Assembly (NCBI GenBank): GCA_039588295.1
Contig: JBDHAB010000038.1
Span: 1 to 39,011, forward strand
Origin: Gemmatimonadota bacterium
Lineage (GTDB): Bacteria; Gemmatimonadota; Gemmatimonadetes; Gemmatimonadales; GWC2-71-9
Reading direction: 5' to 3'
DNA: 39,011 nucleotides
Within the stretch, counting starts at the first letter, position 1. Each line of letters begins with the position of its first letter. Below the pieces are notes generated by a model, which saw only the letters and a program-made list of their open reading frames with translations, was not told the DNA's origin and did no database searches. This document shows positions 4,034-38,844 of this stretch, piece by piece. The translations under genes were made by a program, and so were the position numbers.

Positions 4034-4116
4034 CCGAAATGGCCCCGGGGGGCCGCAGGAGGACCGGACCACCGAGACCTACACAGCAGACCGTGAAGTG
4101 CTATTCGGTTCGCAAT

Positions 4117-4252
4117 GCCCCGATGCGTCACGCGGCGTTCGGGGCTTTCCAGCCCGTCCCACCGTCATCTCCGACAACGCCTTCGCTGTTTCTCACGGGA
4201 CACGGCCCGTAAGCTTCTCACATTCCTTTTCAAGGAGGGCGCAGTGCGTCGC
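4117..4252 (+). repeat. Leader repeat copy 2
   Basis: GCCCCGATGCGTCACGCGGCGTTCGGGGC, CATCTCCGACAACGCCTTCGCTGTTTCTCACGGGACACGGCCCGTA, CATTCCTTTTCAAGGAG, 6 nt, GTG CGT CGC. Confidence 0.9.
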
Positions 4253-5089: not shown

Positions 5090-5129
5090 GGCGAACCGGC
5101 AGTGGACGGTGGGAAAAGTGGTGGGACTG

Positions 5130-5267
5130 GCCCCGAGCGTCACGCGGCACTCGGGGCGTTCGATTCGGCCACACCTGACACCATCTCCGACAACTCCTTC
5201 TCTGTTTCGCACGGGACACGGCCCGTAGGTTGGGCCATTCCCCTCCAAGGAGGCCCTCATGCGTCGC
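5130..5267 (+). repeat. Leader repeat copy 3
   Basis: GCCCCGAGCGTCACGCGGCACTCGGGGC, CATCTCCGACAACTCCTTCTCTGTTTCGCACGGGACACGGCCCGTAGG, CATTCCCCTCCAAGGAG, 6 nt, ATG CGT CGC. Confidence 0.9.
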
Positions 5268-5675
5268 ATCAGTATCTGTGCTGCTCTCGTCGCCCTCTTG
5301 GCTTCCACCTACGCAGTCGCCCAAGCGCAGACGCTCGTCCTCCAGCAGAACAAGTGCGATATGGGGAAGGTCGGTGAGATTCGCGCCTTCGTCGACTCCG
5401 CATTCGTGCCAATCGCACAGGAGCTTGTCAACGAGGGCAAGATCATGGGATTTCACTCGGCGTTTCACTCCTGGGGCGATGAGTGGAACGTGGTGTACAT
5501 CTACGTGGCCGAGGACATCCCGGCATTCCTCAGCGCATTTGGGGAGGTGTTCTCCCGTATGGTGGAGCGGTATCCCGAAGCCATGCCGATGATGCGGGAC
5601 TGGTGCTTCGAGCACAAAGACAGCTTCCTTAGCATGGGGAAGATGACGGAGCACCCGCCAGCGCCCGACCGCTAG
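5259..5675 (+). CDS. Small secreted hypothetical protein (possibly NIPSNAP-like alpha/beta barrel)
   Basis: AAGGAGG RBS, signal peptide ending AQA; HSWGDEWNVVYIY and CFEHKD segments; two cysteines in the mature part. Confidence 0.75.
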   Translation: MRRISICAALVALLASTYAVAQAQTLVLQQNKCDMGKVGEIRAFVDSAFVPIAQELVNEGKIMGFHSAFHSWGDEWNVVYIYVAEDIPAFLSAFGEVFSRMVERYPEAMPMMRDWCFEHKDSFLSMGKMTEHPPAPDR

Positions 5676-25411: not shown

Positions 25412-26361
25412 TCCTGGCGGTCCCCGTTGTATGCCCGAATGATCTCACGCACGAGTCGATGACGCACCACATCGCGTTCGTCCAGGTAGCACAACGCCAC
25501 TCCATCGATACCCGGGAGAATGCGCTCGACCTGGATCAGGCCGGACTCCTCATGGTTCGGCAGGTCAATCTGTGTCTTGTCGCCGACCACCACCGCACGG
25601 GAGTTCAATCCGAGGCGCGTGAGGAACATTTTCATTTGCATTCCCGTCACGTTCTGCGCCTCGTCGAGAATGACGAACGCATCCTGGAGCGTCCGTCCAC
25701 GCATGTAGCCGAGCGGGGCGATTTCGATGGTCCGCGTCTCGAGAGCCCGCTGCATCCGATCGTATGGCATCATGTCCTCGAGGGCGTCATACAGCGGGCG
25801 CAGATACGGATCGACCTTCGCTTGGAGATCGCCCGGCAGGAAGCCGAGTCGCTCACCCGCCTCCACCGCCGGACGGGCAAGCACCAGGCGCCGCACCCGC
25901 TTGCGCGTGAGCGCTTCCACCCCCATGGCCACGGCGAGGTAGGTCTTCCCGGTCCCCGCCGGACCGACGCCCACCACGATCTCGTTCTCGCGCATCGCCG
26001 CCACATAGTCGCGTTGACCGGCCGATTTGGGCTGCACCACGCGGCGCATACCCGGCAGGGCAATCTTGAAGTCTCCATTGTTGGCGTTGGCCGCCTGCTC
26101 GCCGCCATCGGAAACGATGCGCCGCACATCGTCCTGACTCAGAGTCTCGCCAAGCCGCGCGAGTTCGACCATTGAGCGTACGACGCGCGCCGCCCGCTCG
26201 ACGGCATCCAGCTCACCCGCGAGTGTGAGGTGCTCGCCGCGCAGCGATACCTGCGCACCCGTCGCCCGTTCCACCTCGAGCAGATTGGCGTCGTTCACGC
26301 CGGCCAACGCCAATGGGTCGGCGCCCTCGGCGGCGATGCGGTGGGTCACCCGCCCGCTCAT
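25408..26361 (-). CDS. phoH: PhoH family ATPase
   Basis: GPAGTGKTYLA, RPAVEAGERLGFLPGD, YMRGRTL, LDEAQN, VVRHRLV. Confidence 0.95.
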   Translation of the reverse strand: MSGRVTHRIAAEGADPLALAGVNDANLLEVERATGAQVSLRGEHLTLAGELDAVERAARVVRSMVELARLGETLSQDDVRRIVSDGGEQAANANNGDFKIALPGMRRVVQPKSAGQRDYVAAMRENEIVVGVGPAGTGKTYLAVAMGVEALTRKRVRRLVLARPAVEAGERLGFLPGDLQAKVDPYLRPLYDALEDMMPYDRMQRALETRTIEIAPLGYMRGRTLQDAFVILDEAQNVTGMQMKMFLTRLGLNSRAVVVGDKTQIDLPNHEESGLIQVERILPGIDGVALCYLDERDVVRHRLVREIIRAYNGDRQE

Positions 26362-28084
26362 GCGTTATCCACGCGCAGCGCCAGCTGGCTCAGCTCGTCC
26401 GGATCGAGCTCGGTCGGCGCATCTTCGAACAGGGCGCGCGCGGCCGTCGTCTTGGGAAACGCGATCACGTCACGGAGGCTACGAGCGCCGGCCAGCAGCA
26501 TGACCACGCGATCGAACCCCACCGCGAACCCTCCGTGTGGCGGCGCCCCTGCCCGCAGCGCGCGCAAGAGAAACCCGAACCGGTGCTGCGCCTCCTCTTG
26601 CGACATGCCCAGCAGGTCGAGCACCGCGAGCTGAACAGTGGGATCGGTGATTCGAATGGAGCCGCTTCCCAGCTCATTCCCTCCAACAACCGCTGCCGGT
26701 CGTCCGGATGCGGAGACGTGAACGGATGGTGCGCCGTGAGCCACTGTCCCGTTCCCGGGTCGTGCTCGAACAGCGGGAACTCGTCCACCCATGCGAAGCA
26801 ATGCCGCTCGGCCGGAGACACCTCGAGCCTGGCGATGGCGGCACGTCGTACGGCGTCCAACGCCGGCCCGGTCACCGTGTCCGGGCCGGCGGTCGCCAGC
26901 AACAACGCGCCGTCCTCGAGGCCCGCGAGGTCCACGCTCATCTCCCGCAGCTTGGCCAGCGGTCCGCTCAGCTTGCCGTCGTGATGTTTGAGCGTCGCCA
27001 GCCCGCCCGCGCCGAACGTCTTGGCCTTATCGGTCAGGGCATCGAGGTCCTTACGCGACAGGGCGGCGCCACCGCGAATCCTGATGCCGCGGACGCGCCC
27101 CCCCGCGGCGACCGCATCGTCGAACGCCCGGAAGCCCCGTCCCCGAAGCAGCTCGGTCAGATCGACCAGCTCCAGGGCATATCGTAGATCCGGCTTGTCC
27201 GTGCCGAACCGCTCCATCGCGTCCCGATACGGCAGCCGCCGAAACGGAGCCGAGATCGACGCGCCCGCCTCGTCCCACAGCGCTACGAACAACGTCTCGA
27301 GCACGCCGTACACGTCCTCCGGGGTCACGAACGACGCCTCGAGATCGATCTGCGTGAACTCGGGTTGGCGGTCCGCCCGTAGGTCTTCGTCGCGAAAGCA
27401 CCGGGCCAACTGGAAGTAGCGATCGAATCCCGAGATCATGAGCAGCTGTTTGTACAGTTGCGGGGACTGCGGCAACGCGTAGAACTGGCCGCGATGCACC
27501 CGCGACGGAACGAGATAATCTCGTGCCCCTTCCGGGGTCGGCTTCGTCAGCACAGGGGTCTCGATCTCGTAGAACCCGAGCGCCGAGAGCGCGGCCCGCG
27601 CCCGCTGGAGCAGTCGGTGACGCAGCACGAGGTTGCGCTGCAGCTCGGGCCGGCGGAGGTCCAGGTGTCGATGCAGCAGCCTCAATTCCTCAGCCGGGAG
27701 ATCTTCGCCCTTGGTCCGCCACACGGGAATCGGCAAGGCGTCGAGTGCTGCCGGACCCACCACCTCGATGCTCTCCGCCTGCAGCTCCACGTCACCGGTG
27801 ACCATCTCGGGATTCCGCGCGTCGTCCGGCCGGAGCCGAACCTCACCCGTCACGACGACCACCGACTCCGTCACGACATCCGTCGCGGTTCCGAGCGCGG
27901 CCTCGGGCGTCCAGCCAGGACCGAACGAGGCCTGAACGATCCCGTCGCGGTCACGCAGGTCGAGGAACACGAGCCCCCCGAGATTGCGCCGACGATGCAC
28001 CCACCCGCCGAGGCGCACGCGCATTCCCGCGTGCTCGGCACGGAGTGCGCCGCAGCGATGCGTCCGCATGTGCGTCGCTGTCAT
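26358..28084 (-). CDS. aspS: Aspartate-tRNA ligase, frame broken at about 26680 by an apparent deletion
   Basis: MRTHRCG, PTPEGARDYLVPSR, LPQSPQLYKQLLM, CFRDEDLRADRQPEFTQID and HHPFTSP in one frame; GNELGSGSIRI, GAPPHGG and DVIAFPKT in another. Confidence 0.93.
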
Positions 28085-28401: not shown

Positions 28402-29307
28402 GTGCGCCCCGTACTCGCTGCGACGCTCGGGCTTCTCGCCGCCACCGCAGGGTCCACTCGCGCCCAGGCTCCTGCGTCAGCAGATCTGTGGCGAGTGGCC
28501 GCCCTGTCGCTGGCCGTCCCCCCAGCCCTGCAGTCCGGTGCCACGGGGAGCTTCTGGAATCCTGTCGCGGTCGGTGAGCGCCGCGGGATTTCGGTGGGTG
28601 CACACGTCATGCACACGTCTGACATCCTGGGGTTGTCCGGCCTACTGGTCGGGGGAAGCCTTCCCCTACGGCGCCCCCTGCGGGTCGGGATCGTCCTTGG
28701 ACGGATGCAGGTGCGGGATCTGGTCCGCACGACGACGTCGCCAGACACCGAGGAGGGCTCGATTCCGGTCTATGCGCAGCTGGCCGGCATCGGCATCGGA
28801 GTCGGCGGCCGAACGGCCAGCGTGGGGGCGATGGTGCGGTACCACACCGCGCGCCTGGACACCCAAGAAGAGCGTGGTGCCACGATCGACGTGGGAGTGC
28901 GGCTAATCCCGATCGCTCGGCTCACCGTGGCGGCGGCGAGCCACTTCTTTCCGGCCACCTTCACCTCGGACCCGACGACCGAATACTACGCGGGAGCGGA
29001 GTACGCCGTCGTGGAGCGCGGCGCGGGTCAGCCGTCGTCGGTGCGCATCAGCGTGCGATACGGAGCGACTTACCACGACTCAGGAGATCTGGATCACACG
29101 GCGGGGGTTGGACTGAACGCGGGCGACTGGGCCCGGATCGATGCGGCGCTCACGAGCGAGTCCTCGTACGACGCCCACGAGCTTCGCCCGGGGATCGGGC
29201 TGTCGCTGCGCTTCGGCCGCTACGTTGTGGCACTGGCGCACGGGTTGGGACTCAACGGGGTGGGAGGCACCTACCGCGTCGGGCTAGATGTCGAGCTTGG
29301 GCGGTGA
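28402..29307 (+). CDS. Exported beta-strand-rich protein, possible outer-membrane barrel
   Basis: Signal peptide ending TRAQA, FWNP motif near the N-terminus, alternating beta pattern; GTGA overlap with rlmN. Confidence 0.7.
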   Translation: MRPVLAATLGLLAATAGSTRAQAPASADLWRVAALSLAVPPALQSGATGSFWNPVAVGERRGISVGAHVMHTSDILGLSGLLVGGSLPLRRPLRVGIVLGRMQVRDLVRTTTSPDTEEGSIPVYAQLAGIGIGVGGRTASVGAMVRYHTARLDTQEERGATIDVGVRLIPIARLTVAAASHFFPATFTSDPTTEYYAGAEYAVVERGAGQPSSVRISVRYGATYHDSGDLDHTAGVGLNAGDWARIDAALTSESSYDAHELRPGIGLSLRFGRYVVALAHGLGLNGVGGTYRVGLDVELGR

Positions 29308-30368
29308 ACCTGCTCAATGTCACGCCAGCGAGTGCCATCCACCACGTCGCGCAGTGGCTGGTCGCTCGGGAAGAGCCGGCCTACCGACAGCGCCAGATCC
29401 TGCCGCGGCTCTGGCAACGGCCAGTCAACCGGTGGACCGACGCCACTGATCTTCCCAAGCAGTTGAGGGACGGGCTCGAAGCAGCGTTCGCGCTCCCTCG
29501 ACCGACGCTCCGTGCGCGTCAGCAGTCTCGGGACGGCACGATCAAGTTCCTGTGGGACTTCGGCGCAAACGGTTCGGTCGAGTCAGTGCTCATCCCCGAA
29601 GGGCGCCGGCGGACGCTGTGTATCTCGTCTCAGGCGGGCTGCGCGTACGGATGTACCTTCTGCGCCACGGGCCGGATGGGATTCCTCCGCCATCTCGAGC
29701 CATGGGAAATCGCGAGTCAGGTTCGCGAGCTGGTCTTGGACCCGGCGCTGGGACGGCCGACCAACGTGGTGTTCATGGGCATGGGAGAGCCGCTGCACAA
29801 TTGGGCGGCGGTGGATGTCGCGCTGACCTTGCTGAACCATCCGCTTGGCCTTGGCATCGGAGCCCGGCACATCACGGTGAGCACCGTCGGCATCGTACCG
29901 AACTTGCGCAAGCTGGCCGAGCGACCCGAGCAGTTCCGGGTTGCCCTCTCGCTTCACGCGCCGACGAGCGCGATTCGCCGGCGCCTCATGCCCGTGGAGG
30001 GCAAGTACCCGTTGAGCACCGTCGTACAGGCCTTGGAGGGATTCGCACGGCGGGTCACGTTCGAGTACGTGATGATTCGCGGCGTCAACGACCGCGATGA
30101 CGATGCGCTGGCGCTGGCGCAACTCGCGCGGCCCCTCGCGGCGTTGGTGAACCTCTTGCCGCTGCACGCGGGCGGCGACCCGGAATTGCGACCGTCATCG
30201 ACCGATCGCATTCGCCGGTTTGCCGCGACCCTGCAAGCCCAGGGGATCGCCACATCCATCCGGCGGAGCCGCGGCATCGATATCGATGCCGCGTGTGGGC
30301 AGCTACGGACTGCCACCGACCAGACGCGCCGCGTCGAGGCCCAGGTACACGCTGGCATCGAGGAGTAG
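29304..30368 (+). CDS. rlmN: Dual-specificity RNA methyltransferase RlmN (radical SAM)
   Basis: CISSQAGCAYGCTFC, VFMGMGEP, SLHAP, DIDAACGQL. Confidence 0.95.
   Translation: MNLLNVTPASAIHHVAQWLVAREEPAYRQRQILPRLWQRPVNRWTDATDLPKQLRDGLEAAFALPRPTLRARQQSRDGTIKFLWDFGANGSVESVLIPEGRRRTLCISSQAGCAYGCTFCATGRMGFLRHLEPWEIASQVRELVLDPALGRPTNVVFMGMGEPLHNWAAVDVALTLLNHPLGLGIGARHITVSTVGIVPNLRKLAERPEQFRVALSLHAPTSAIRRRLMPVEGKYPLSTVVQALEGFARRVTFEYVMIRGVNDRDDDALALAQLARPLAALVNLLPLHAGGDPELRPSSTDRIRRFAATLQAQGIATSIRRSRGIDIDAACGQLRTATDQTRRVEAQVHAGIEE
30270..30293. repeat. Perfect 24-bp palindrome
   Basis: CGCGGCATCGAT-ATCGATGCCGCG is its own reverse complement. Confidence 0.95.
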
Positions 30369-30405
30369 CCGCGAGTCTTCCTCAGTCACGAGCGTCCCCA
30401 CGCCC
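30277..30405 (+). repeat. 129-bp direct repeat, left copy (rlmN 3' end plus orphan LytR_C 3' end)
   Basis: Aligns ungapped to 37854-37982 with 11 mismatches by manual count. Confidence 0.95.
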
Positions 30406-30434
30406 GGCGTCTTCGCCAACCGGCTCGGAGGCTC

Positions 30435-30463
30435 TTGACAGCGTGAACGCTGATCTGAATCAT
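30435..30463 (+). promoter_or_regulatory. Possible promoter of the island
   Basis: Perfect TTGACA, 17 nt, weak AATCAT; inverted repeat AGCGT-GA-ACGCT at 30440-30451. Confidence 0.3.
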
Positions 30464-30548
30464 ACCAGAAGAGATCGTAGACACCCTAAAGGCCGAACAG
30501 TTTCCTCCCGTTTTTGAGGTCCAACCCTCCCGGACCTCCGGACAAGAT

Positions 30549-31151
30549 GTGCAGGTCTCTCGCCAGGCATTTCACAGCGCCGCAACATTGCGGTCGGAGG
30601 TGCCAGTGATTGAGTGCTCGGTTCACGACTCGCATCGCCACCACACGCGCGCGGGACGCGTGTTCTTCGTGAGCCTCATCAGCTTCGTCGGTGTGGCAGC
30701 CCCGGCGCTCGCGCAAAGCCAACGGGCCCGACCGAAGAACACGACGGGCGTCGCATGCCAGGTGATCACTGGCGGGGAAATCCAAAGTTCGGCGTCGGTC
30801 GCCCTGGCTTTGCGCGGCCGCGCCACAGGCCTCTTCCTGCGCGAGACTAGCGGGCAGGCGGGTGCCGGCAGCCAGATCGCCCTGCGTGGCATCAACAGCT
30901 TGGCGTTCGCTTCACCACTGGTCTTCATCGATGGCCTCAAGATGGCAGCCGCTCCGGGGACCGGTCAGGCGATCGGAATCCTCGACCAGCTCAACCCGAA
31001 CGACGTTCTCCTTATCGAGATCTTTCGTGGCCCCGCGGCCACGACACTGTACGGCACCGACGCCGCTGGCGGCGTCATTCGTCTCTACACGAAGCACGGG
31101 CATCCCCGCGCTGAACTCACGAGCGACGCACATGCTCGGTGCCTTCCGTAG
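30549..31151 (+). CDS. Stand-alone TonB-dependent receptor plug-domain protein (start uncertain)
   Basis: Signal peptide ending ALA-Q, IALRGINS, PLVFIDG, LNPNDVLLIEIFRGPAATTLYGTDAAGGVIRLYTK; stops with no barrel. Confidence 0.8.
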   Translation: MQVSRQAFHSAATLRSEVPVIECSVHDSHRHHTRAGRVFFVSLISFVGVAAPALAQSQRARPKNTTGVACQVITGGEIQSSASVALALRGRATGLFLRETSGQAGAGSQIALRGINSLAFASPLVFIDGLKMAAAPGTGQAIGILDQLNPNDVLLIEIFRGPAATTLYGTDAAGGVIRLYTKHGHPRAELTSDAHARCLP

Positions 31152-31154
31152 GAC

Positions 31155-31186
31155 CCGGCCTCGGGGGGCACCGCCCCCGACGCCGG
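31155..31186 (+). terminator. GC stem-loop between the plug gene and susC-like gene
   Basis: CCGGCCTCGGGGG-GCACCG-CCCCCGACGCCGG, one mismatch, no T tract; may be a stabilising hairpin rather than a terminator. Confidence 0.4.
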
Positions 31187-31220
31187 CAGACCAAGCACTC
31201 CTAGATGCAGGAGGTTGCCG

Positions 31221-34200
31221 ATGAGTCCGCACATCCTTGTCGGAAGCAGACCGAGGCGCCGCTGGCGGGCGTCTGGCTCTGCGACACTTCGCTGCGCGCT
31301 CGCCTTGGGAGCTGCCGCGCTCTGCACCGTCTCGGCCCAGGCACAAACCGGCGAGATCTCCGGTCGTGTCACGGACGCGGTCACGGGCGAGCCCCTGGAG
31401 GCAGCGGCGGTGGTGGTCTTGGGTACGAACATCCGGGCGCGAACCCGGGTGGACGGCCTGTACAACCTGATGGGCGTTGCGATGGGGCAGCATCGCTTGC
31501 GCGTGATGATCATTGGGTACGCGACGCAGACCGCCACGGCAAATGTCCAGTCGGGTCTGACCACGACGGTCGATTTCGCGCTCAACGCCTCGGTCATCTC
31601 ACTCGATGCGATGGTGGTCACCGGGCAGGCGGGCGCGGTCAGCCGTCGCGAGATCGGGAACAGCATCTCGACGATTGGAGCCGAGACCATCGCGAACCTG
31701 CCCATCAGTGACGTGGGCCAGGCGCTGCAGGGCCTGGCCGCCGGCGTCACCGTGATGGACAACTCGGGTCAGGTAGGAGTAGGCCAGCGCATCCGGCTGC
31801 GCGGCATCAACTCGGTCTCGATGGGCAACCAGCCGCTCATCTACGTGGACGGCGTCCGGATCCTCGATCGGGCCCTCAACGACGACCCGGAGACGGGCAA
31901 CCTGGCCCCGTCACCGCTTCACGACATTAACCCCGAGGACATCGAGCGGGTCGAGGTGGTGAAGGGCGCCGCGGCAACCACGCTGTACGGCACCGAAGCC
32001 TCGGCCGGCGTGATCCAGATCTTCACCCGCCGGGGCTCGCAGGGTGCCCCCCGCTGGTCCATATCGATCGATCAGGGGTTCAACAACCAGGGGCACATCG
32101 GGCCGTCCAAAGACATCAATCCGACGGGCCTCGGGATGAACAACTGCAATTTCACGCGACCCCGAGTTCGCGACCGGTGACTGGATGTTCCCCGCCGACA
32201 CCCTGGGTTGCCCGGAGAGCGGGAGCTGGTTCCGGAACGGGCACCTGCAACGCTACAACGTCTCGGTCCGGGGCGGCAGTGAGGACATGAATTACTTCCT
32301 CTCCGCCCGCTGGGGCAGCGAGAACGGCACCGTCGCCCCGCAGAACAGCACCGACTACAGCATCCGCGCGAACTTGGGCAACGATGACGCTGCAGTTCAA
32401 CACCAACTACGCGCGGCGCGATGTCACGTGGATCCCGGACGGGGACAATGCCGAAGGCTTCGCGCTCAACGTCTGGCGCGGCCCAAACGGCTATACGCCC
32501 GACAACGACGACAGTCAAGTGTTCGACCTGTCGCTAGAGCAGCTAAGCAACCACTACACCACCGGGCTCACCTGGAGCTGGAACCCGCTCCCCAGTATGA
32601 CGCACCGGGTCACCGCAGGGATCGACTTCGTGGAGTCGGATTACCGCGAGTTTCGACCCTGGGGGTTCTACTACGACGCCCTTGGCGACCGCGAGGACGA
32701 CGAGTGGCAGCGCCGCACGATGACGCTGGACTACTCGGGTACGTGGAGCACCCGCTTCATGGCGGGCGTGGGATCCTCGTTCTCCGTCGGCGCCCAAATG
32801 TACGAGGAGTACCGTTACGGACTGAACGGCTTCGGCTACGAGTGGGCCGGACCGGGCGAGTTCTTGGTGGACAACGCGGCCCGGACGGAGGCGTTCGAGA
32901 GCCGCAGTACCATCACCAACGGTGGCTTCTTCTTCAACGAGGTCTTGAGCTTCGGCGACCGGGTCTTCCTCACCGGTGGCCTCCGGTTCGACGGGTTCAG
33001 CACCTTCGGTGAGAACTATGGCCTGGCGGCGTATCCGAAGATCTCACTCGCCTATACGATCTCCGACGAGAACTTCTGGCCCTCGTGGTGGGACGGCATG
33101 AAGCTGCGTGCTGCTTGGGGCGAGTCGGGCCGGGCGCCCGGCACGTTCGACGCCGTGCGGACCTGGGAACCGGTCTCCGGCGACGAGGGACAACCGGCGG
33201 TGACGCCGGACAACGTGGGGAACGCCGATCTGGGACCCGAGCGGAGTCGCGAGCTGGAACTCGGGTTCGAGGGATCCATGTTCGGCGGGCGCGTCGGCTT
33301 CGACGTGACCCGGTACATCCAGAAGACCTACGATGCGCTGATCGGCGTGGAACAGGTTCCGTCTCTCGGGTTCGTCGGCACACAGCTCGAGAACGTTGGC
33401 GAGCTGCGCAACAACGGCTGGGAGGTGCAACTCAACGCCGACGTGGTCCGGAGCGCCGCCTTCGGGTGGACCGTCGGACTGCGCTACTCCACGCAGAAGA
33501 GCGAGGCGTGGGACCTCGGTGGGTTCGAGGATATCTACGTGAGTTGGCGGCAACGCCTGCGGCCCTGTACGTCGGCAGGGGGCAACGGTGACCGCATCCT
33601 CTCCGAGGAGGCGCTGCGGCAGCTGGTGCACCAGGGGAGGTACGCCGACGAAGGGGCGATCGACCGCTCCGACCTGGGTCTCCTCAAGCACGTCGAGTGC
33701 CCCATCCCGGGGTACTGGCACAACGTCATCGTGAACGACACGGCCACTGTTGACAACCCGTGGGGCACGACCGCCGCCGGGGTGAGGCCCGAAATGGAGG
33801 AGCGGTATCTGGGCCCGACGTATCCGACGCAGACGCTCGGGTTCAACATGCAGTTCAGCGTCGGCAGCTGGCTCACGGTCGACGCGGTTGGCGAGAGTCA
33901 GCTCGGACACGTGCTCTCCGCGGGTCCGGCGTACCAGAACGCGCGCCGTCAAGTATGGCCTGAGTGCCGCGAGGTGCAGGCGCTGTACAATGAGGTGCGG
34001 GCCCAGTCAGGTACGACGGCCGCACGGGACGCGCTCAACGCGTACCAGCTCGCCAAGTGCATCAGCGGCTTCACGACCTACGGGATGTGGATCGACGACG
34101 CCGACTATTTCAAGTTGCGGTCGTTGTCGCTCTCGTTCCGCCTGCCCGACAACTTATTCCCGGGCTCTCGCTCGGCCATCTTCCAGCTCCAGGGCCGGAA

Positions 34201-34339
34201 TCTCCTCCGGATCACCGACTACGTCGGGATCGACCCGGAGGTCTCGGAGCAGGGTAGCCAGGATTCCCTGTGGCGGCAGGAATACTACAACCTGCCGACA
34301 CACCGGTCGTTCATCGCGAGCCTCCGGCTCGAGTTCTAA
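31221..34339 (+). pseudogene. SusC/RagA TonB-dependent receptor, frame broken at about 32157 and 32380
   Basis: AGGAGG RBS, signal peptide, carboxypeptidase-regulatory-like domain, plug (DINPEDIERVEVVKGAAATTLYG), barrel motifs GNADLGPERSRELELG and DADYFKLR, C-terminal Phe; spread over three frames. May be an assembly artefact. Confidence 0.85.
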
Positions 34340-34358
34340 GGCGAGGAGAGACGAAGCC

Positions 34359-35711
34359 ATGACACGCACACACCTGTTGCGGTGCAGCGGCGGACGGCTC
34401 CTCCCCGGAGTGATCGCCTGCTGCGTGATCCTCGCTGGATGCGACGTGACGAACCCGGGTCGCATCCAAGACGAGGATCTGAACGACGAACTCACCTTCC
34501 GGGCGCTCGTCACGGGTATGTCGAGCGACTTCTCGGAGGGATTCATGGACCTCGACTTCACCATGGCCCGCGCCAATGACGAGATCACTGGGAGCGGCAG
34601 CTACTTCACCACAGGGCTCGTGCGCATCGGCATCTTCGAGCGCGACGACATGAACGACCAGTGGGGCTCGATGCACCGGGCCCGCTGGGTCGCCGAAGCC
34701 GGCCTCGAGCGCATGCGCGAGGCCATGGACGACGCGACGTTCAACGCGAGCCCGCTCACGGCTCGCGCCTACCTCTTGGCTGCGTTTGCCCACCGCGCGC
34801 TGGGCGAGTGCATGTGCTACGCCGTCCTCGACGGCAGCCCGGTGATGAACCACGAAGTGCACTTCGATAGCGCCATCGTCCGAGCGGACGAAGCCATCCG
34901 AATCGGACAGGCAGCCGGCGAAAGCGACCTCGTGACGGCGGCGTATGGTGTCCGAGCGCAGGCCAACATGCACCTGCGGAACTGGGGTGCGGCCGCAGCC
35001 GACGCCAACCAGGTTGCGACGGATTTCGAGTATATCGCCTTCTACGATGCCAACTCCGGTCGCGAGGAGAACACGGTCTACGTGGAGACACACCAACGCG
35101 CGGAGATGTCCGTGTATGGAACGTACGCCGCGACCTTGAACCCGCCCGCCAACCCCGCGACGGACCTCGGAGGCGACCCGCGGGCGCCCTGGTTCGATTG
35201 CACCGACGCGGGCAACCGGCCGCCCGAGTGCAACTCCCATCAGGGCGCGGACGGCCTCACGCCACACTACATGCAGCGGAAGTACGACAACCTCGGTGCC
35301 GACGTCCCACTCGTGAAGGGCACTGAGATGCGCCTCATCGAGGCCGAGGCGGAGCTCAACGGGGCCGCGAACCTCGGCACGTTCGTCGGGTTCGTCAACC
35401 AGGCCCGGTCCAACTACGGCCTGGGCCCGCTCGCCACGCCGGCGACGGCGAACGACGCATGGATCATGCTGGACAACGAGCGGCAGCTCACCCTTTGGCT
35501 GGAGGTTCGCCGGCAGGCCGACGCCCGCCGGTGGGATGAGGACGGCCGAACGTTCATGCCTGCGGTCCAGTACATCATGGGGCTGACGGCAACCCCATAC
35601 GAAAAGGACCCGGGCATCGCGAAGCGGATGACCTGCGTTCCGATCTCGTTCGACGAATGCGCGACGAATGAGAACCTCGCGAGCGCTCCGGAATGTGAGG
35701 GGAATTACTGA
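34359..35711 (+). CDS. RagB/SusD family lipoprotein
   Basis: GAGGAG RBS, lipobox LAGC, EMRLIEAEAEL, VNQAR, ERQLTLWLEVRRQADARRW; directly downstream of susC-like gene. Confidence 0.9.
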   Translation: MTRTHLLRCSGGRLLPGVIACCVILAGCDVTNPGRIQDEDLNDELTFRALVTGMSSDFSEGFMDLDFTMARANDEITGSGSYFTTGLVRIGIFERDDMNDQWGSMHRARWVAEAGLERMREAMDDATFNASPLTARAYLLAAFAHRALGECMCYAVLDGSPVMNHEVHFDSAIVRADEAIRIGQAAGESDLVTAAYGVRAQANMHLRNWGAAAADANQVATDFEYIAFYDANSGREENTVYVETHQRAEMSVYGTYAATLNPPANPATDLGGDPRAPWFDCTDAGNRPPECNSHQGADGLTPHYMQRKYDNLGADVPLVKGTEMRLIEAEAELNGAANLGTFVGFVNQARSNYGLGPLATPATANDAWIMLDNERQLTLWLEVRRQADARRWDEDGRTFMPAVQYIMGLTATPYEKDPGIAKRMTCVPISFDECATNENLASAPECEGNY

Positions 35712-35849
35712 GGACGCCGGCGGTGCTCCGGCGGGCCAAGACCTGCCGGGCACCTCGGCCACCTCCAAGCAGAGCCTAACTCCAGCGGTGGCCGCGGCGG
35801 ATCCCTCGCAGCGGCCACCGCGCGCGCAATGGGCGGACGTGAGGACAAT

Positions 35850-36030
35850 CGACCACGCATCCGCAAGCACGCGTCCTCGCGCACCCTGAAACCACACGGA
35901 AGCCGTGCGACTGGCGCAGGCCGCGCCGTCCACGGCACAGCGCGACCGCTTCTCGCCCAGCGCATATGCAGACATCACCGTCTTCGACCCAAGAACGATC
36001 ATCGACCGCGCAACCCACACCAACTCGGCG
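35850..36030 (+). pseudogene. Remnant of an N-acyl-D-amino-acid deacylase (amidohydrolase) C-terminus
   Basis: QRDRFSPSAYADITVFDPRTIIDRATHTN resembles the family tail (DRGxxxxGxxADxxxFDPxTxxDRAT); no intact upstream ORF. Confidence 0.6.
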
Positions 36031-36160
36031 CCGGAGGAGCAAGATGAGGGCAGAGCGGGCAGAAGAACGGCAGGGCGGCAAGACAGCAGCAGCGGCAGGG
36101 ACGTCGCAATCCATCGCTCCCGCTCGATGTCTCAGTCGTCCGCGCCGTCACAGTCGTCTG

Positions 36161-37798
36161 ATGGTCGTCTTCAGCCTCACCACTGCCTGCGTCTCTGGCC
36201 CCGAGATCGTCGAGCATCCGGCATACGCAACGGGCCAGGTCGTCCGGTCCAACCAGGGCATGGTCGTGAGTGGATCTCCGATCGCAACGGATATCGGCGT
36301 CCAGGTGTTGCAGTCGGGCGGCAATGCCGTGGACGCCGCCGTCGCGACGGCGCTGGCACTCGCCGTGGTCGAGCCCACGATGTCCGGCCTCGGTGGCCGC
36401 ACCCAGGTGTTGGTCCGCACCGTGAGCGGCCCGTTCCACGGCGCCGACGGCACCACCGAGGTGCCGCGCGGCGCACCTGCCGATCCCACGAGCGACGAAG
36501 GCGCGTACGGGTACCACACGATCGGCATTCCCGGAACGGTCGCGGCGCTCGAAAAGGCACTCACCGGCTTCGGCACCCGGTCCTTCGCCCAGCTTCTCTC
36601 TCCCATCATTGCGCTCGCCGATACCGGGTTCTTCTTGCCGCAGGCCGAGGCGGAACGCATTGCGAGGGTCGCTGACCAGCTCAGGGAGTTTCCCGGGTCT
36701 GCGTCGTACTTTCTCAAGCTTGACGGCTCGACGTACCGGGGCGGCGAGCGATTGACACAGACCGAGCTCGCGGAAACGCTCACGGCGCTCGCCACCGGCG
36801 GTGCGGAGATATTCTATCGCGGCTGGATCGCCGAGAGCATCGCAGCCGACCTCGCACGAGGCAACGGGTTCGTCACGACAACGGATTTGGCGCGATATCG
36901 CGCGCCGTGGAGTCGTGTCGTACAGGGGAGCTACCGTGGCTACGACCTGGTCGGCACGTACCTCCCCGCATCGGGAGCGACGACGATCGAGGCGCTCCAC
37001 TTGCTCGAGCGGTTCGACCTGACCGACCGTGCCGGAGGCGCTGCGTGGGCAGCGCTCCTCGTACAGGCGTTGCTCCTGAGCTTTGAGGATCGCGTAGCAG
37101 ACTTGGGGAACCCGGACGAGCACGCTCAGCTACTCGTGTCCAAGGAGTGGGCCGTGACGCGCGCAGCGGACATCATGGATCCCGCGCGACGAGAAGGACC
37201 CGTCGTCGCATCGATGGCACCAGGGCGTAGGGACGAGTCAGCTCACACGACGCATCTCTCCGTGATCGACCGCGACGGCATGGTGGTCGCCCTCACCCAA
37301 TCACTCGGACCGATCATGGGCTCCAAGGTCACCGCGCCGGGACTGGGGTTCGTGTACGCGGCCACGATGGGCTATCTCGGCGGGCAGCAGCCGGGCGACC
37401 GGCCCTTCTCATCGCAGTCGCCACTCATCGTGTTGCAGAATGACGAGCCCGTGCTGGTGCTTGGCGCCGCAGGCGGTCGCCGCATCCTCTCCGCGATCGT
37501 GTCGGTCGTCAGCCGCTGGGTTGACCAGCAGCTCTCGCTGCCAGACGCAATGGCTGCCCCGCGACTTCATCCCGAAGCACGGGTCGTGCACATGGAGTCT
37601 GGCGACGGAACCGCCTGGTCACCGGAAGATCTCACGGATCTCGTGAGCTACGGGTTTGAGGTGGACGTACGAACGGCGTCATCCTACTTCGCACGCATTC
37701 ACGGCATCGAGATCGATCCTGACCACGGGAAGTATTTGGGCGTCGCCGATCCGCGCTGGAACGGGAGCGCGGGGGCGCCCGAACGAAGAAGACGATGA
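36161..37798 (+). CDS. Gamma-glutamyltransferase family Ntn-hydrolase, probable lipoprotein (start uncertain)
   Basis: GGNAVDAAVA, EPTMSGLGG, IGIPGTV, HTTHLSVID nucleophile Thr, SSQSP, GVADPR; TTAC lipobox-like. Confidence 0.9.
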   Translation: MVVFSLTTACVSGPEIVEHPAYATGQVVRSNQGMVVSGSPIATDIGVQVLQSGGNAVDAAVATALALAVVEPTMSGLGGRTQVLVRTVSGPFHGADGTTEVPRGAPADPTSDEGAYGYHTIGIPGTVAALEKALTGFGTRSFAQLLSPIIALADTGFFLPQAEAERIARVADQLREFPGSASYFLKLDGSTYRGGERLTQTELAETLTALATGGAEIFYRGWIAESIAADLARGNGFVTTTDLARYRAPWSRVVQGSYRGYDLVGTYLPASGATTIEALHLLERFDLTDRAGGAAWAALLVQALLLSFEDRVADLGNPDEHAQLLVSKEWAVTRAADIMDPARREGPVVASMAPGRRDESAHTTHLSVIDRDGMVVALTQSLGPIMGSKVTAPGLGFVYAATMGYLGGQQPGDRPFSSQSPLIVLQNDEPVLVLGAAGGRRILSAIVSVVSRWVDQQLSLPDAMAAPRLHPEARVVHMESGDGTAWSPEDLTDLVSYGFEVDVRTASSYFARIHGIEIDPDHGKYLGVADPRWNGSAGAPERRRR

Positions 37799-37853
37799 AG
37801 CTCCCGACTGGATCACGACCGCGGCGGCGCAGCAGTTGCTCTTCACCGCGTTC

Positions 37854-37982
37854 TCGATATCGATGCTGCGCGTGGACAGCTACGGACTGCGACCGACGAG
37901 ACGCGCCGCGTCGAGGCCCAGGTACACGCTAGCATCGAGGAGCAGCAGCGAGTCTTCCTCAGTCACCAGCGTGCCCACCCCC
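37854..37982 (+). repeat. 129-bp direct repeat, right copy (LytR_C 3' end plus orphan rlmN 3' end)
   Basis: Plus frame reads DIDAARGQLRTATDETRRVEAQVHASIEE, a copy of the RlmN tail. Confidence 0.95.
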
Positions 37983-38287
37983 AGGATCTCCAATACACGA
38001 CCCAGGCCAGTCGTGTCATCCGTTCGGGCGAACACGACCGTATGCGCCATCGTGTCGTTATCGGCCGTCCCGAAGTAGACGACGTCGATTCCTTGCGCCC
38101 GAAGGCTGAGGGTCATCGTCCGCGCGAGCCCGTCGATTCCCGTGCCGTTCAGCACTTCGACGGTGATGCGCTCGCCTTCACCGGGAATGGGGAAGCGCGA
38201 CGGGGGCTCGCCAGACCGCTGCCACCACCACCACGAGCCCGCAGCAATGGCCAACGACACGAACCCTGCAACCGCTAGGCGTCGCAC
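37880..38287 (-). CDS. LytR C-terminal domain membrane protein
   Basis: N-terminal TM, ITVEVLNGTGIDGLA, DVVYFGTA, DASVYLGLD. Confidence 0.88.
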   Translation of the reverse strand: MRRLAVAGFVSLAIAAGSWWWWQRSGEPPSRFPIPGEGERITVEVLNGTGIDGLARTMTLSLRAQGIDVVYFGTADNDTMAHTVVFARTDDTTGLGRVLEILGVGTLVTEEDSLLLLDASVYLGLDAARLVGRSP

Positions 38288-38844
38288 ACGAGTGCGTTCC
38301 AGAACCGGACGGTCTCCGGGAGGAGGCGCCGTCCCCGACGGATTTCGTGTTCGATGCGCCGCCGCGCGACCTCGACTAGCGCGGGCTGGGGATCGGCGGG
38401 TACCTGGGACGCCAGCTCGGTCAATCCCTCCCGGGACCCACCGCGGCCGGGATCCAGGTAGTCCGCCAGGTACAGCATGCTGCCGACCCGCTCCCAGTCG
38501 GCACAGCCCACCGAGTGGTACCGAACCGCGTTCAGGATGCCGGGATCCCGTTCCCCGTGCCGGGCGACCATTACCGCTGCCGCCGGCCCATGTCGCAGCG
38601 CTTCGATGTCCCACCCGTCGGGGACCAGCTCGCGCAGGACGTCCGAGGACGCATCCTTCAAGGCATCGTGCAGAGCGGCGGCGCGAAGCCATCGCGCACG
38701 CTCGACGTTCCCGATAGCCATGGCGTCGGCCCAGCGTGACAGGAGCCACGCCACGCGCTCGACGTGCGCTCGACGCTCGTTCGTCATCTGGGCCCACGGC
38801 GGGAACTCGAGCGCCAGCCGCGTCGCCGTATCAGGACTCGGCAC
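38275..38844 (-). CDS. YqeK-like HD-domain hydrolase (symmetrical Ap4A hydrolase family)
   Basis: RRAHVERV, LHDALK, HGPAAA, VRYHSVG, LYLADYLDPGR; GTG start overlapping the folK end. Confidence 0.85.
   Translation of the reverse strand: MPSPDTATRLALEFPPWAQMTNERRAHVERVAWLLSRWADAMAIGNVERARWLRAAALHDALKDASSDVLRELVPDGWDIEALRHGPAAAVMVARHGERDPGILNAVRYHSVGCADWERVGSMLYLADYLDPGRGGSREGLTELASQVPADPQPALVEVARRRIEHEIRRGRRLLPETVRFWNALVCDA

Follow-up and report, generated by a model that had tools for sequence, protein, structure and literature searches.

The window analysed here is the whole of contig C38 (JBDHAB010000038.1; 39,011 nucleotides), one of the 160 contigs in an assembly of a Gemmatimonadota bacterium (GCA_039588295.1); named homologues agree with that phylum. 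Towards its right-hand end, the genes rlmN and lytR_C, which converge and overlap in most of the relatives we examined, are separated by an insert of 7,448 bp, and the insert is bracketed by two direct copies of the segment that holds the ends of both genes. The rlmN gene (29304-30368, plus strand) is intact, with the motifs CxxxCxxC and MGMGEP and with Cys331 in ACGQL, and its product clears the TIGR00048 model (317 bits against a cut-off of 290); its last 30 codons lie within the left copy. It is the only rlmN in the genome. Beyond the insert, the gene for a LytR_C-domain membrane protein (37880-38287, minus strand; PF13399, E value 2e-10) is likewise intact, with an apparent GTG start and a 3' end within the right copy. 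Upstream of lytR_C lies an HD-domain (YqeK-like) gene (38275-38796, minus strand, start approximate), a neighbour that is conserved in the relatives.

The copies occupy 30277-30405 and 37854-37982, at an offset of 7577, and are identical at 118 of 129 positions (91.5%, 11 mismatches); in BLAST alignments the repeat stretches leftward to 137 nt, the left copy then beginning at 30269, at 89.8% identity. No third copy is present in the 4.5-Mb genome. Both copies encode the tail of RlmN on the plus strand and the tail of LytR_C on the minus strand, as a preliminary description of this DNA had stated. In the plus frame the left copy reads DIDAACGQL and later HAGIEE, followed by the stop codon at 30366-30368, while the orphan rlmN tail in the right copy (37854-37945) reads DIDAARGQL and later HASIEEQQ. 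TGT has become CGT at 37871 and TAG has become CAG at 37943, so that the orphan has lost both its stop and the conserved Cys331, the catalytic cysteine of RlmN. In the minus frame, the left copy holds an orphan lytR_C 3' end (30303-30405; 34 codons including the stop, still open, with no gene upstream) that terminates in EDSRLLLDASVYLGLDAARLVGGSP, and the right copy reads EDSLLLLD and ends in VGRSP. The two frames share 66 nt of the left copy (30303-30368), with the opposite-strand codons in register, which agrees with the figure of about 66 nt given earlier for the former overlap. Each gene now uses one copy, rlmN the left and lytR_C the right. Either breakpoint alone would have cut RlmN before Cys331 or removed about 34 codons of LytR_C, and to that extent the duplication can be called a rescue, as the preliminary description did; the word holds for these two breakpoints, but the RlmN tail past CGQL is replaceable in relatives.

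The 11 differences between the copies fall as three in the part that belongs to rlmN only, four in the overlap and four in the part that belongs to lytR_C only. Two of the three rlmN-only differences are silent and the third is the cysteine loss; three of the four LytR-only differences are silent and the fourth exchanges Arg and Leu. All four overlap differences are at third positions of one frame, with none at the 21 shared second positions, which is the pattern that release from one of the two frames predicts. When the copies were compared with the equivalent segment of 29 relatives, the best match was 97 of 129 positions, against 118 of 129 for the copies with each other. The copies being closest to each other, both would come from the host lineage or from an unsampled sister and not from a sampled distant donor, and we infer that both are host-derived.

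The insert (30406-37853; GC content 0.659) reads throughout on the plus strand. A promoter-like site, TTGACA-17-AATCAT (30417-30463), begins 11 nt past the left copy and is homologous to the promoter region of a gene cluster on another contig of the same genome (C30); our promoter scan returned 1 site against 0.9 expected, and the site counts only through this homology. Four terminator-like sites against 3.6 expected were disregarded. The site is followed by a gene for a protein consisting of a TonB plug domain only (30549-31151, start uncertain), a susC-like TonB-dependent transporter gene (31215-34339) whose frame is broken near 32155, where 11 nt are missing by comparison with a relative, and near 32380 (about 14 nt), and an intact susD/RagB lipoprotein gene (34359-35711). 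Next come the 3' remnant of an amidohydrolase gene (35843-36030), which in relatives precedes the gene that follows it here, a gamma-glutamyltransferase (GGT) gene (36044-37798), and finally a 5' stub (37795-37853), presumably of the gene that follows GGT in the source cluster, its identity being assigned from synteny. The ATG of the stub overlaps the GGT stop, as in congeners, and the stub runs for about 55 nt before the right copy begins. Apparent decayed rlmN homology to the left of 37846 was dropped, as the stretch follows the GGT stop just as it does in congeners. The GGT start is ambiguous (36040-36165): in-frame ATG codons occur at 36044 and 36161, and with a further ATG, shifted from this frame by one base, the protein would have a typical lipoprotein signal peptide. 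The sequence at this point is confirmed by a contig from an independent sequencing run (X2).

No member of a recombinase family occurs among the open reading frames of the insert, which has no room for one, and none is found on the contig, in keeping with the absence of an integrase noted in the preliminary description. The genome does hold 13 matches to PF00589 (tyrosine recombinase) and two to PF00239 (resolvase), all on other contigs. Transposase families were covered by a Pfam scan of the open reading frames between 25.4 and 39 kb, which found none in or beside the insert, nor any other mobile gene. The window contains no tRNA or tmRNA gene.

To establish what the site looks like elsewhere, we read the end of rlmN in 49 relatives, comprising 38 of a first 40 (one of the others had no match and one only a fragment) and 11 taken from the best scores of the family screen described below. 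The two genes overlap tail to tail in 39 of the 49, of which 24 belong to the window's own family and 8 and 7 to two other families of the order, and in 38 of them the LytR stop is in the same register, 9 nt past the Cys codon. All eight congeners have the overlap, which is exactly 66 nt in six; none of the relatives is conspecific with the window. Relatives with the empty overlap, which the preliminary description had proposed to look for, are thus common. Across the three families this antisense overlap measures 45-165 nt, the codons are in register, and LytR stops at the Leu codon of CGQL. We built a tree of RlmN with 49 rows, from which the truncated RlmN of one congener (G008) was excluded. 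In it the window's gene falls within the overlap-bearing lineages, and the ten genomes lacking the overlap form one clade (99/95). The overlap is thus an ancestral feature of the order that has come apart on two or more occasions, once long ago, in the separate clade, and once at the window locus. Among the open-licence literature we found no report of the rlmN/lytR_C overlap or of such an insertion into a convergent overlap, although the supplementary figures of Furuta et al. may hold a case.

We looked for lytR_C in eight of the ten overlap-free genomes. It is on the same contig in five, convergent with rlmN and 1.4-10.5 kb downstream, and on another contig in three. The gap is filled by other genes, in most cases one of glycerate-kinase type together with genes for glyoxylate-related enzymes; G015, G013, G024, G010, G012, G022, G023 and G014 have varying subsets of glycerate-kinase-type, aminotransferase, lyase, coenzyme A ligase, hydroxyacid dehydrogenase and phosphoenolpyruvate carboxylase genes. 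Six pairs lent themselves to comparison, and none showed a trace of a repeat. We had considered these ten split genomes as signs of an insertion hotspot and dropped the idea, since they are a single clade and the six pairs show no repeat. Smaller changes were also seen at the site. In G039 the overlap is reduced or undone by a local offset of 44 nt without cargo, and the ends are alike at 18 of 30 nt, which hints at a tandem duplication of short length; in G711 the offset is 60 nt, again without cargo, and the match of 13 of 30 nt is weak. The rlmN of G008 has a frameshift near codon 315, probably an assembly error, and its overlap is intact.

Independent support for the arrangement comes from Logan contigs of four sequencing runs, at a depth of about 1-5. 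A 206-nt contig of run X2 extends from GGT through 48 nt of the right copy with 3 differences, and pieces from run X3, which belongs to a second study, match both flanks as well as the insert with 0-2 differences and at similar depth. The joined empty form appears on no contig of the four runs, a negative that their low depth makes weak. The preliminary description had named a chimeric join of two strains as the outcome that would undo its reading; a contig from another sample that spans the end of GGT into the right copy speaks against such a join. Outside the insert, aspS (26358-28084) is frameshifted near 26678, where a run X1 contig is longer by about 49 letters. As the assembly contains deletion errors, the breaks in susC may be either errors or real decay, and we therefore do not call susC a pseudogene. 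Elsewhere in the window, in its lower-GC first 5 kb, three intergenic repeats of 32-68 nt (613-719, 4116-4211 and 5128-5268) are related to one another and contain hairpin-like parts.

The content of the insert is recognizable as part of a larger cluster. One relative, G004, has the genes in the order plug, susC, susD, peptidase-like gene, amidohydrolase A, GGT, amidohydrolase B; G001 and G008 carry the same cluster in pieces, and the insert is colinear with the cluster in all three. (The labels peptidase-like and amidohydrolase are putative and based on motifs.) In six of six orthologous loci, GGT comes after amidohydrolase A. The insert is thus a slice, from promoter to stub, of a cluster native to the group. 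The same genome has a version of the cluster on C30 (1-4400), which keeps the peptidase-like gene and both amidohydrolases and is without plug, susC, susD and GGT. The amidohydrolase remnant in the insert agrees with the C30 gene at 64% of nucleotides (39% at third positions) and shares 1 of 11 of its private states; its agreement with six relatives is comparable, at 62-71%. The remnant is thus no copy of the C30 gene. Other genomes have variants of the cluster that lack the peptidase gene and show a comparable -35 context.

In a protein database, the best non-self match of RlmN is 71%, its cluster consisting of only two entries of this contig, while for SusD four homologues reach 92-94% and another four about 81%, and for GGT three entries reach 82-85%. 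Among congeners, SusD and GGT are less conserved than RlmN. That the outside homologues of the cargo are far closer than those of RlmN makes horizontal acquisition look likely. Run X5, of which 44% was read, also contains pieces of susC and susD, their identity being roughly 87-95%, and covers the flanks sparsely. The GGT of the insert is about as distant from its congeners as they are from one another. We infer a horizontal gain from another Gemmatimonadota lineage, and redundant genes would have been lost afterwards; the direction of transfer is part of the same reading. The donor was probably a related sediment bacterium.

If the site were the target of a mobile element, we would expect to find it used again. 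We screened two families with the RlmN tail, a query that picks up the window's own orphan at an E value of 5e-12. No comparable orphan rlmN tail was found in the 187 rlmN-matching genomes among 200 of the window's family (f1), nor in the 199 among 201 of a second family (f2), hence in 0 of 386 other genomes, in a screen that short or decayed scars would escape. These tallies include the unpublished genomes G156, G091, G218 and G207 (f1), G748, G655, G487 and G760 (f2), and G021; no claim beyond the tallies depends on unpublished genomes. Thirteen double matches in f1 were rejected as a frameshift (G008), contig splits (G073, G127) or chance hits at E>1e-3 (10), and seven in f2 as distant paralogues at 38-41% (5), a contig split (G692) or a tandem duplication (G570). 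The last of these (G570:C2:110180-120000) is a 3.7-kb duplication at 76% identity that begins inside rlmN and does not include lytR_C; it is preceded by near-identical fragments of an upstream gene and may be real or a misassembly.

With no further scar among the 386 genomes, a site-specific element is disfavoured, and the event looks like a one-off at a site that is not an integrase hotspot. What the preliminary description called an island is a real insert, but an integrase-type mobile element finds no support in a segment with no recombinase, no second scar and ragged ends made of gene fragments. Its view of the site as unusual was overstated: scars of this kind have been described (Furuta et al. 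2010, PMC2853133), rlmN is a reported integrase target of one Streptomyces element (PMC9513070), and another clade of the family has opened the same site independently.

The left edge of the duplicated segment coincides with a perfect 24-bp palindrome within rlmN (30270-30293). Palindromes of 24 bp or longer number four in the genome. The palindrome has a predicted fold of -17.1 kcal/mol (z score -3.0), against -6.3 kcal/mol (z score +0.7) for its equivalent in the right copy. The base at 30276 is A in the left copy and C in both the right copy and all eight nearest relatives, the change being from Leu to Ile. The site was thus a quasi-palindrome with one mismatch at the time of insertion, and the later A is what perfected it. 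Quasi-palindromes of that quality number 32 in the 4.5 Mb, and the chance of a junction falling so near one is about 3e-4, as calculated post hoc. Quasi-palindromes are described as stalling polymerase and being perfected by template switching (Klaric et al. 2020, PMC7202029). It is tempting to suppose that the palindrome had a role in the insertion, a stall there having also started it; we offer this as a speculation, one that may well be wrong.

Taken together, we consider an insertion with long target duplication that involved no dedicated recombinase to be the explanation that probably applies, and we hold it with moderate confidence. This retains what the preliminary description proposed, an insertion with a target-restoring duplication, and it is supported by the empty overlap in relatives and by the bridging contig. 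The insertion is real, probably single and fairly recent, and it uncoupled an overlap that is order-wide; that it formed in a single step is our reading of the locus. A slice of a related Gemmatimonadota cluster, comprising promoter, plug, susC, susD, amidohydrolase, GGT and the start of the next gene, would have entered the cell horizontally and become linked to the chromosome at two staggered points. These points, 129-137 bp from each other, would lie on either side of the rlmN/lytR_C overlap, the host segment between them being copied to both sides. Because they straddle both gene ends, rlmN kept the left copy and lytR_C the right. The most likely chemistry would be break repair or replication template-switching: a fork may have exited at the quasi-palindrome in rlmN, copied the foreign piece and re-entered behind its exit point. 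Each copy was afterwards released from one reading frame. One might extend this to a general claim, that insertions with long target duplication arise by template-switching at hairpin-forming quasi-palindromes and are the way in which bacteria separate overlapping genes hundreds of millions of years old, and in that broad form we think it doubtful. If it were true, no nuclease or recombinase would be needed in the cargo, and this locus would record both the trigger, in the form of a junction within a palindrome, and proof of an active hairpin, in the form of its later perfection.

Several observations weigh against an insertion of this kind. Three of the four LytR-only differences (30390, 30396, 30402) are silent third-position G/C swaps, at places where the left copy is non-coding; this fits two once-functional alleles better than neutral decay, although the sites are few and indecisive. 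The palindrome argument is post hoc and concerns a single locus. C30 is without exactly the genes that the insert has, which suits a relocation within the genome, and a 15-mer ahead of the -35 box occurs in the genome only at the insert and C30 and in no congener at that place. The tetranucleotide distance of the insert is at the 52nd percentile, so composition gives no sign of foreign origin. The donor genome was not found: GGT DNA at E<=1e-200 matched none of 400 family genomes; SusD at E<=1e-130 matched 3 of 400 phylum genomes, all congeners at 57-58%; and a search with GGT gave 36 loci, the best at 67% to the query. A genome scan with SusD returned no confirmed relative, and a metagenome scan with RlmN, which gave 80 loci, nearly all distant and the best at 69%, was not used. 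No contig among the pieces listed spans the left junction, and not far from it, in aspS, the assembly contains at least one deletion error.

The silent swaps in the LytR-only part bear most directly on the possibility of a single crossover, RecA-dependent or homology-facilitated, with DNA of a sister strain that already carried the cargo together with its own copy of the overlap. The two copies would then be two alleles, their divergence in part older than the event, and 129 bp with an identical run of 32 bp should suffice in principle. The losses of Cys331 and of the rlmN stop must nonetheless postdate the insertion, so that some of the divergence is local; no RlmN between 72% and 99% identity was found to mark such a sister; and the illegitimate joins are merely pushed one step back. 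We regard this course of events as unlikely. That one chromosomal cluster explains nearly the whole insert, with ragged ends and no recombinase remnant, makes it quite improbable that the insert is an integrase island minus its integrase, or an island like that of microcin H47 moved by host functions acting on long imperfect repeats. The absence of another scar in the 386 genomes tells in the same direction, as does, weakly, the absence of the joined empty form from the four low-depth runs. Such an origin would account for the target-restoring geometry, which resembles that of integrase attachment (att) sites (PMC4383910), and it has parallels in the H47 island, which has repeats of 148 and 144 bp at 76% identity, no integrase and excision independent of recA (PMC3191183), and in the one Streptomyces element that targets rlmN with 11-nt repeats (PMC9513070); the genome, moreover, has 13 tyrosine-recombinase matches elsewhere.

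The reverse gene sets of C30 and the insert would be explained if the native C30 cluster had been copied to the rlmN site and the two loci had then lost complementary genes, and both the 15-mer shared by these two places and the ordinary distance of GGT from its congeners would fit. We give this relocation little credence, as the amidohydrolase remnant is no closer to C30 than to the relatives while the repeat copies differ by only 8.5%, as peptidase-less cluster variants with a similar -35 context exist in other genomes, and as SusD and GGT have homologues at 82-94% outside the lineage. A formation in two steps, with the overlap already undone by a short tandem duplication when the cargo entered between the copies, has possible precedents in the cargo-free offsets of G039 and, weakly, G711; it is very unlikely, since the cargo would have had to hit the new junction itself and there is no extra target sequence on either side. 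Hardest to credit is an assembly chimera of two strains joined through the repeat. The deletion at 26678 and the unbridged left junction leave some room for one, but the X2 contig joins GGT to the right copy, the X3 pieces match flanks and insert at similar depth, and the dead rlmN frame of the right copy cannot be the end of the only rlmN of a functioning strain, the genome having just one. An insertion with long target duplication accounts for the locus better than these.

Insertion with long target duplication is a known class, reportedly treated by Nobusato et al. 2000 (Gene 259:99). As set out by Furuta et al. (2010, PMC2853133), the class comprises inserts of less than 20 kb with more than 30 bp duplicated, no other mobile genes and an empty site elsewhere; the repeats frequently extend across start or stop sites without damage to the target, and double-strand breakage is suggested as the cause, the mechanism being unproven. 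Lim et al. (2012, PMC3457768) widened the term to 'other DNAs'. The present locus has an insert of 7,448 bp, a unique pair of direct repeats of 129-137 bp at 90-91.5% identity that span gene ends, and an empty site in relatives; neither the insert nor its surroundings contain an integrase, a transposase or another mobile gene, to the extent of the scans described above. The search of Furuta et al. was for restriction-modification genes, and there are none here, the cargo being plug, susC, susD, an amidohydrolase remnant and GGT. The locus is thus the same kind of scar and not a restriction-modification unit, and with no such cargo no cargo nuclease can explain the break. It also differs from that class in that its cargo is for SusCD/GGT uptake, its target was an ancient 66-nt convergent overlap in which two genes were restored at once, its empty site is known across species only, and one junction lies in a quasi-palindrome.

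The microcin H47 island of E. coli (Azpiroz et al. 2011, PMC3191183) is similar in being small and in having long imperfect repeats (148/144 bp) and no integrase. It is unlike this locus in that its excision and integration were proven experimentally, also in recA cells, whereas there is no sign of mobility here. A further difference is that the repeats at this locus are the coding ends of two genes. The element e14, an integrase island in icd, restores its target and leaves the displaced fragment behind. Integrase islands as catalogued by Islander (PMC4383910) have att geometry and require an integrase, and AICE03 targets rlmN in Streptomyces with 11-nt repeats (PMC9513070). The locus resembles such islands in having an intact target at one end and a dead fragment at the other, and in that rlmN has been a target before; it differs in the lack of an integrase and of any reuse of the site, in a repeat ten times longer, and in ends that are fragments of a chromosomal cluster. 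The palindrome finally recalls quasi-palindrome template-switch mutagenesis, in which an imperfect inverted repeat is perfected, here by one base at 30276; that work concerns point mutations (PMC7202029), and the link to kilobase insertions is ours. The locus reveals no new mobile element and no new gene function. What the locus offers is a snapshot of an order-wide overlap being taken apart, its ends duplicated and each copy then losing one frame, of which the other clade in this family, whose genes now lie apart with nothing left of the process, shows the likely end state. It adds a case without restriction-modification genes to the insertion class of Furuta and colleagues, and junctions at quasi-palindromes are a lead that can be counted across that class.

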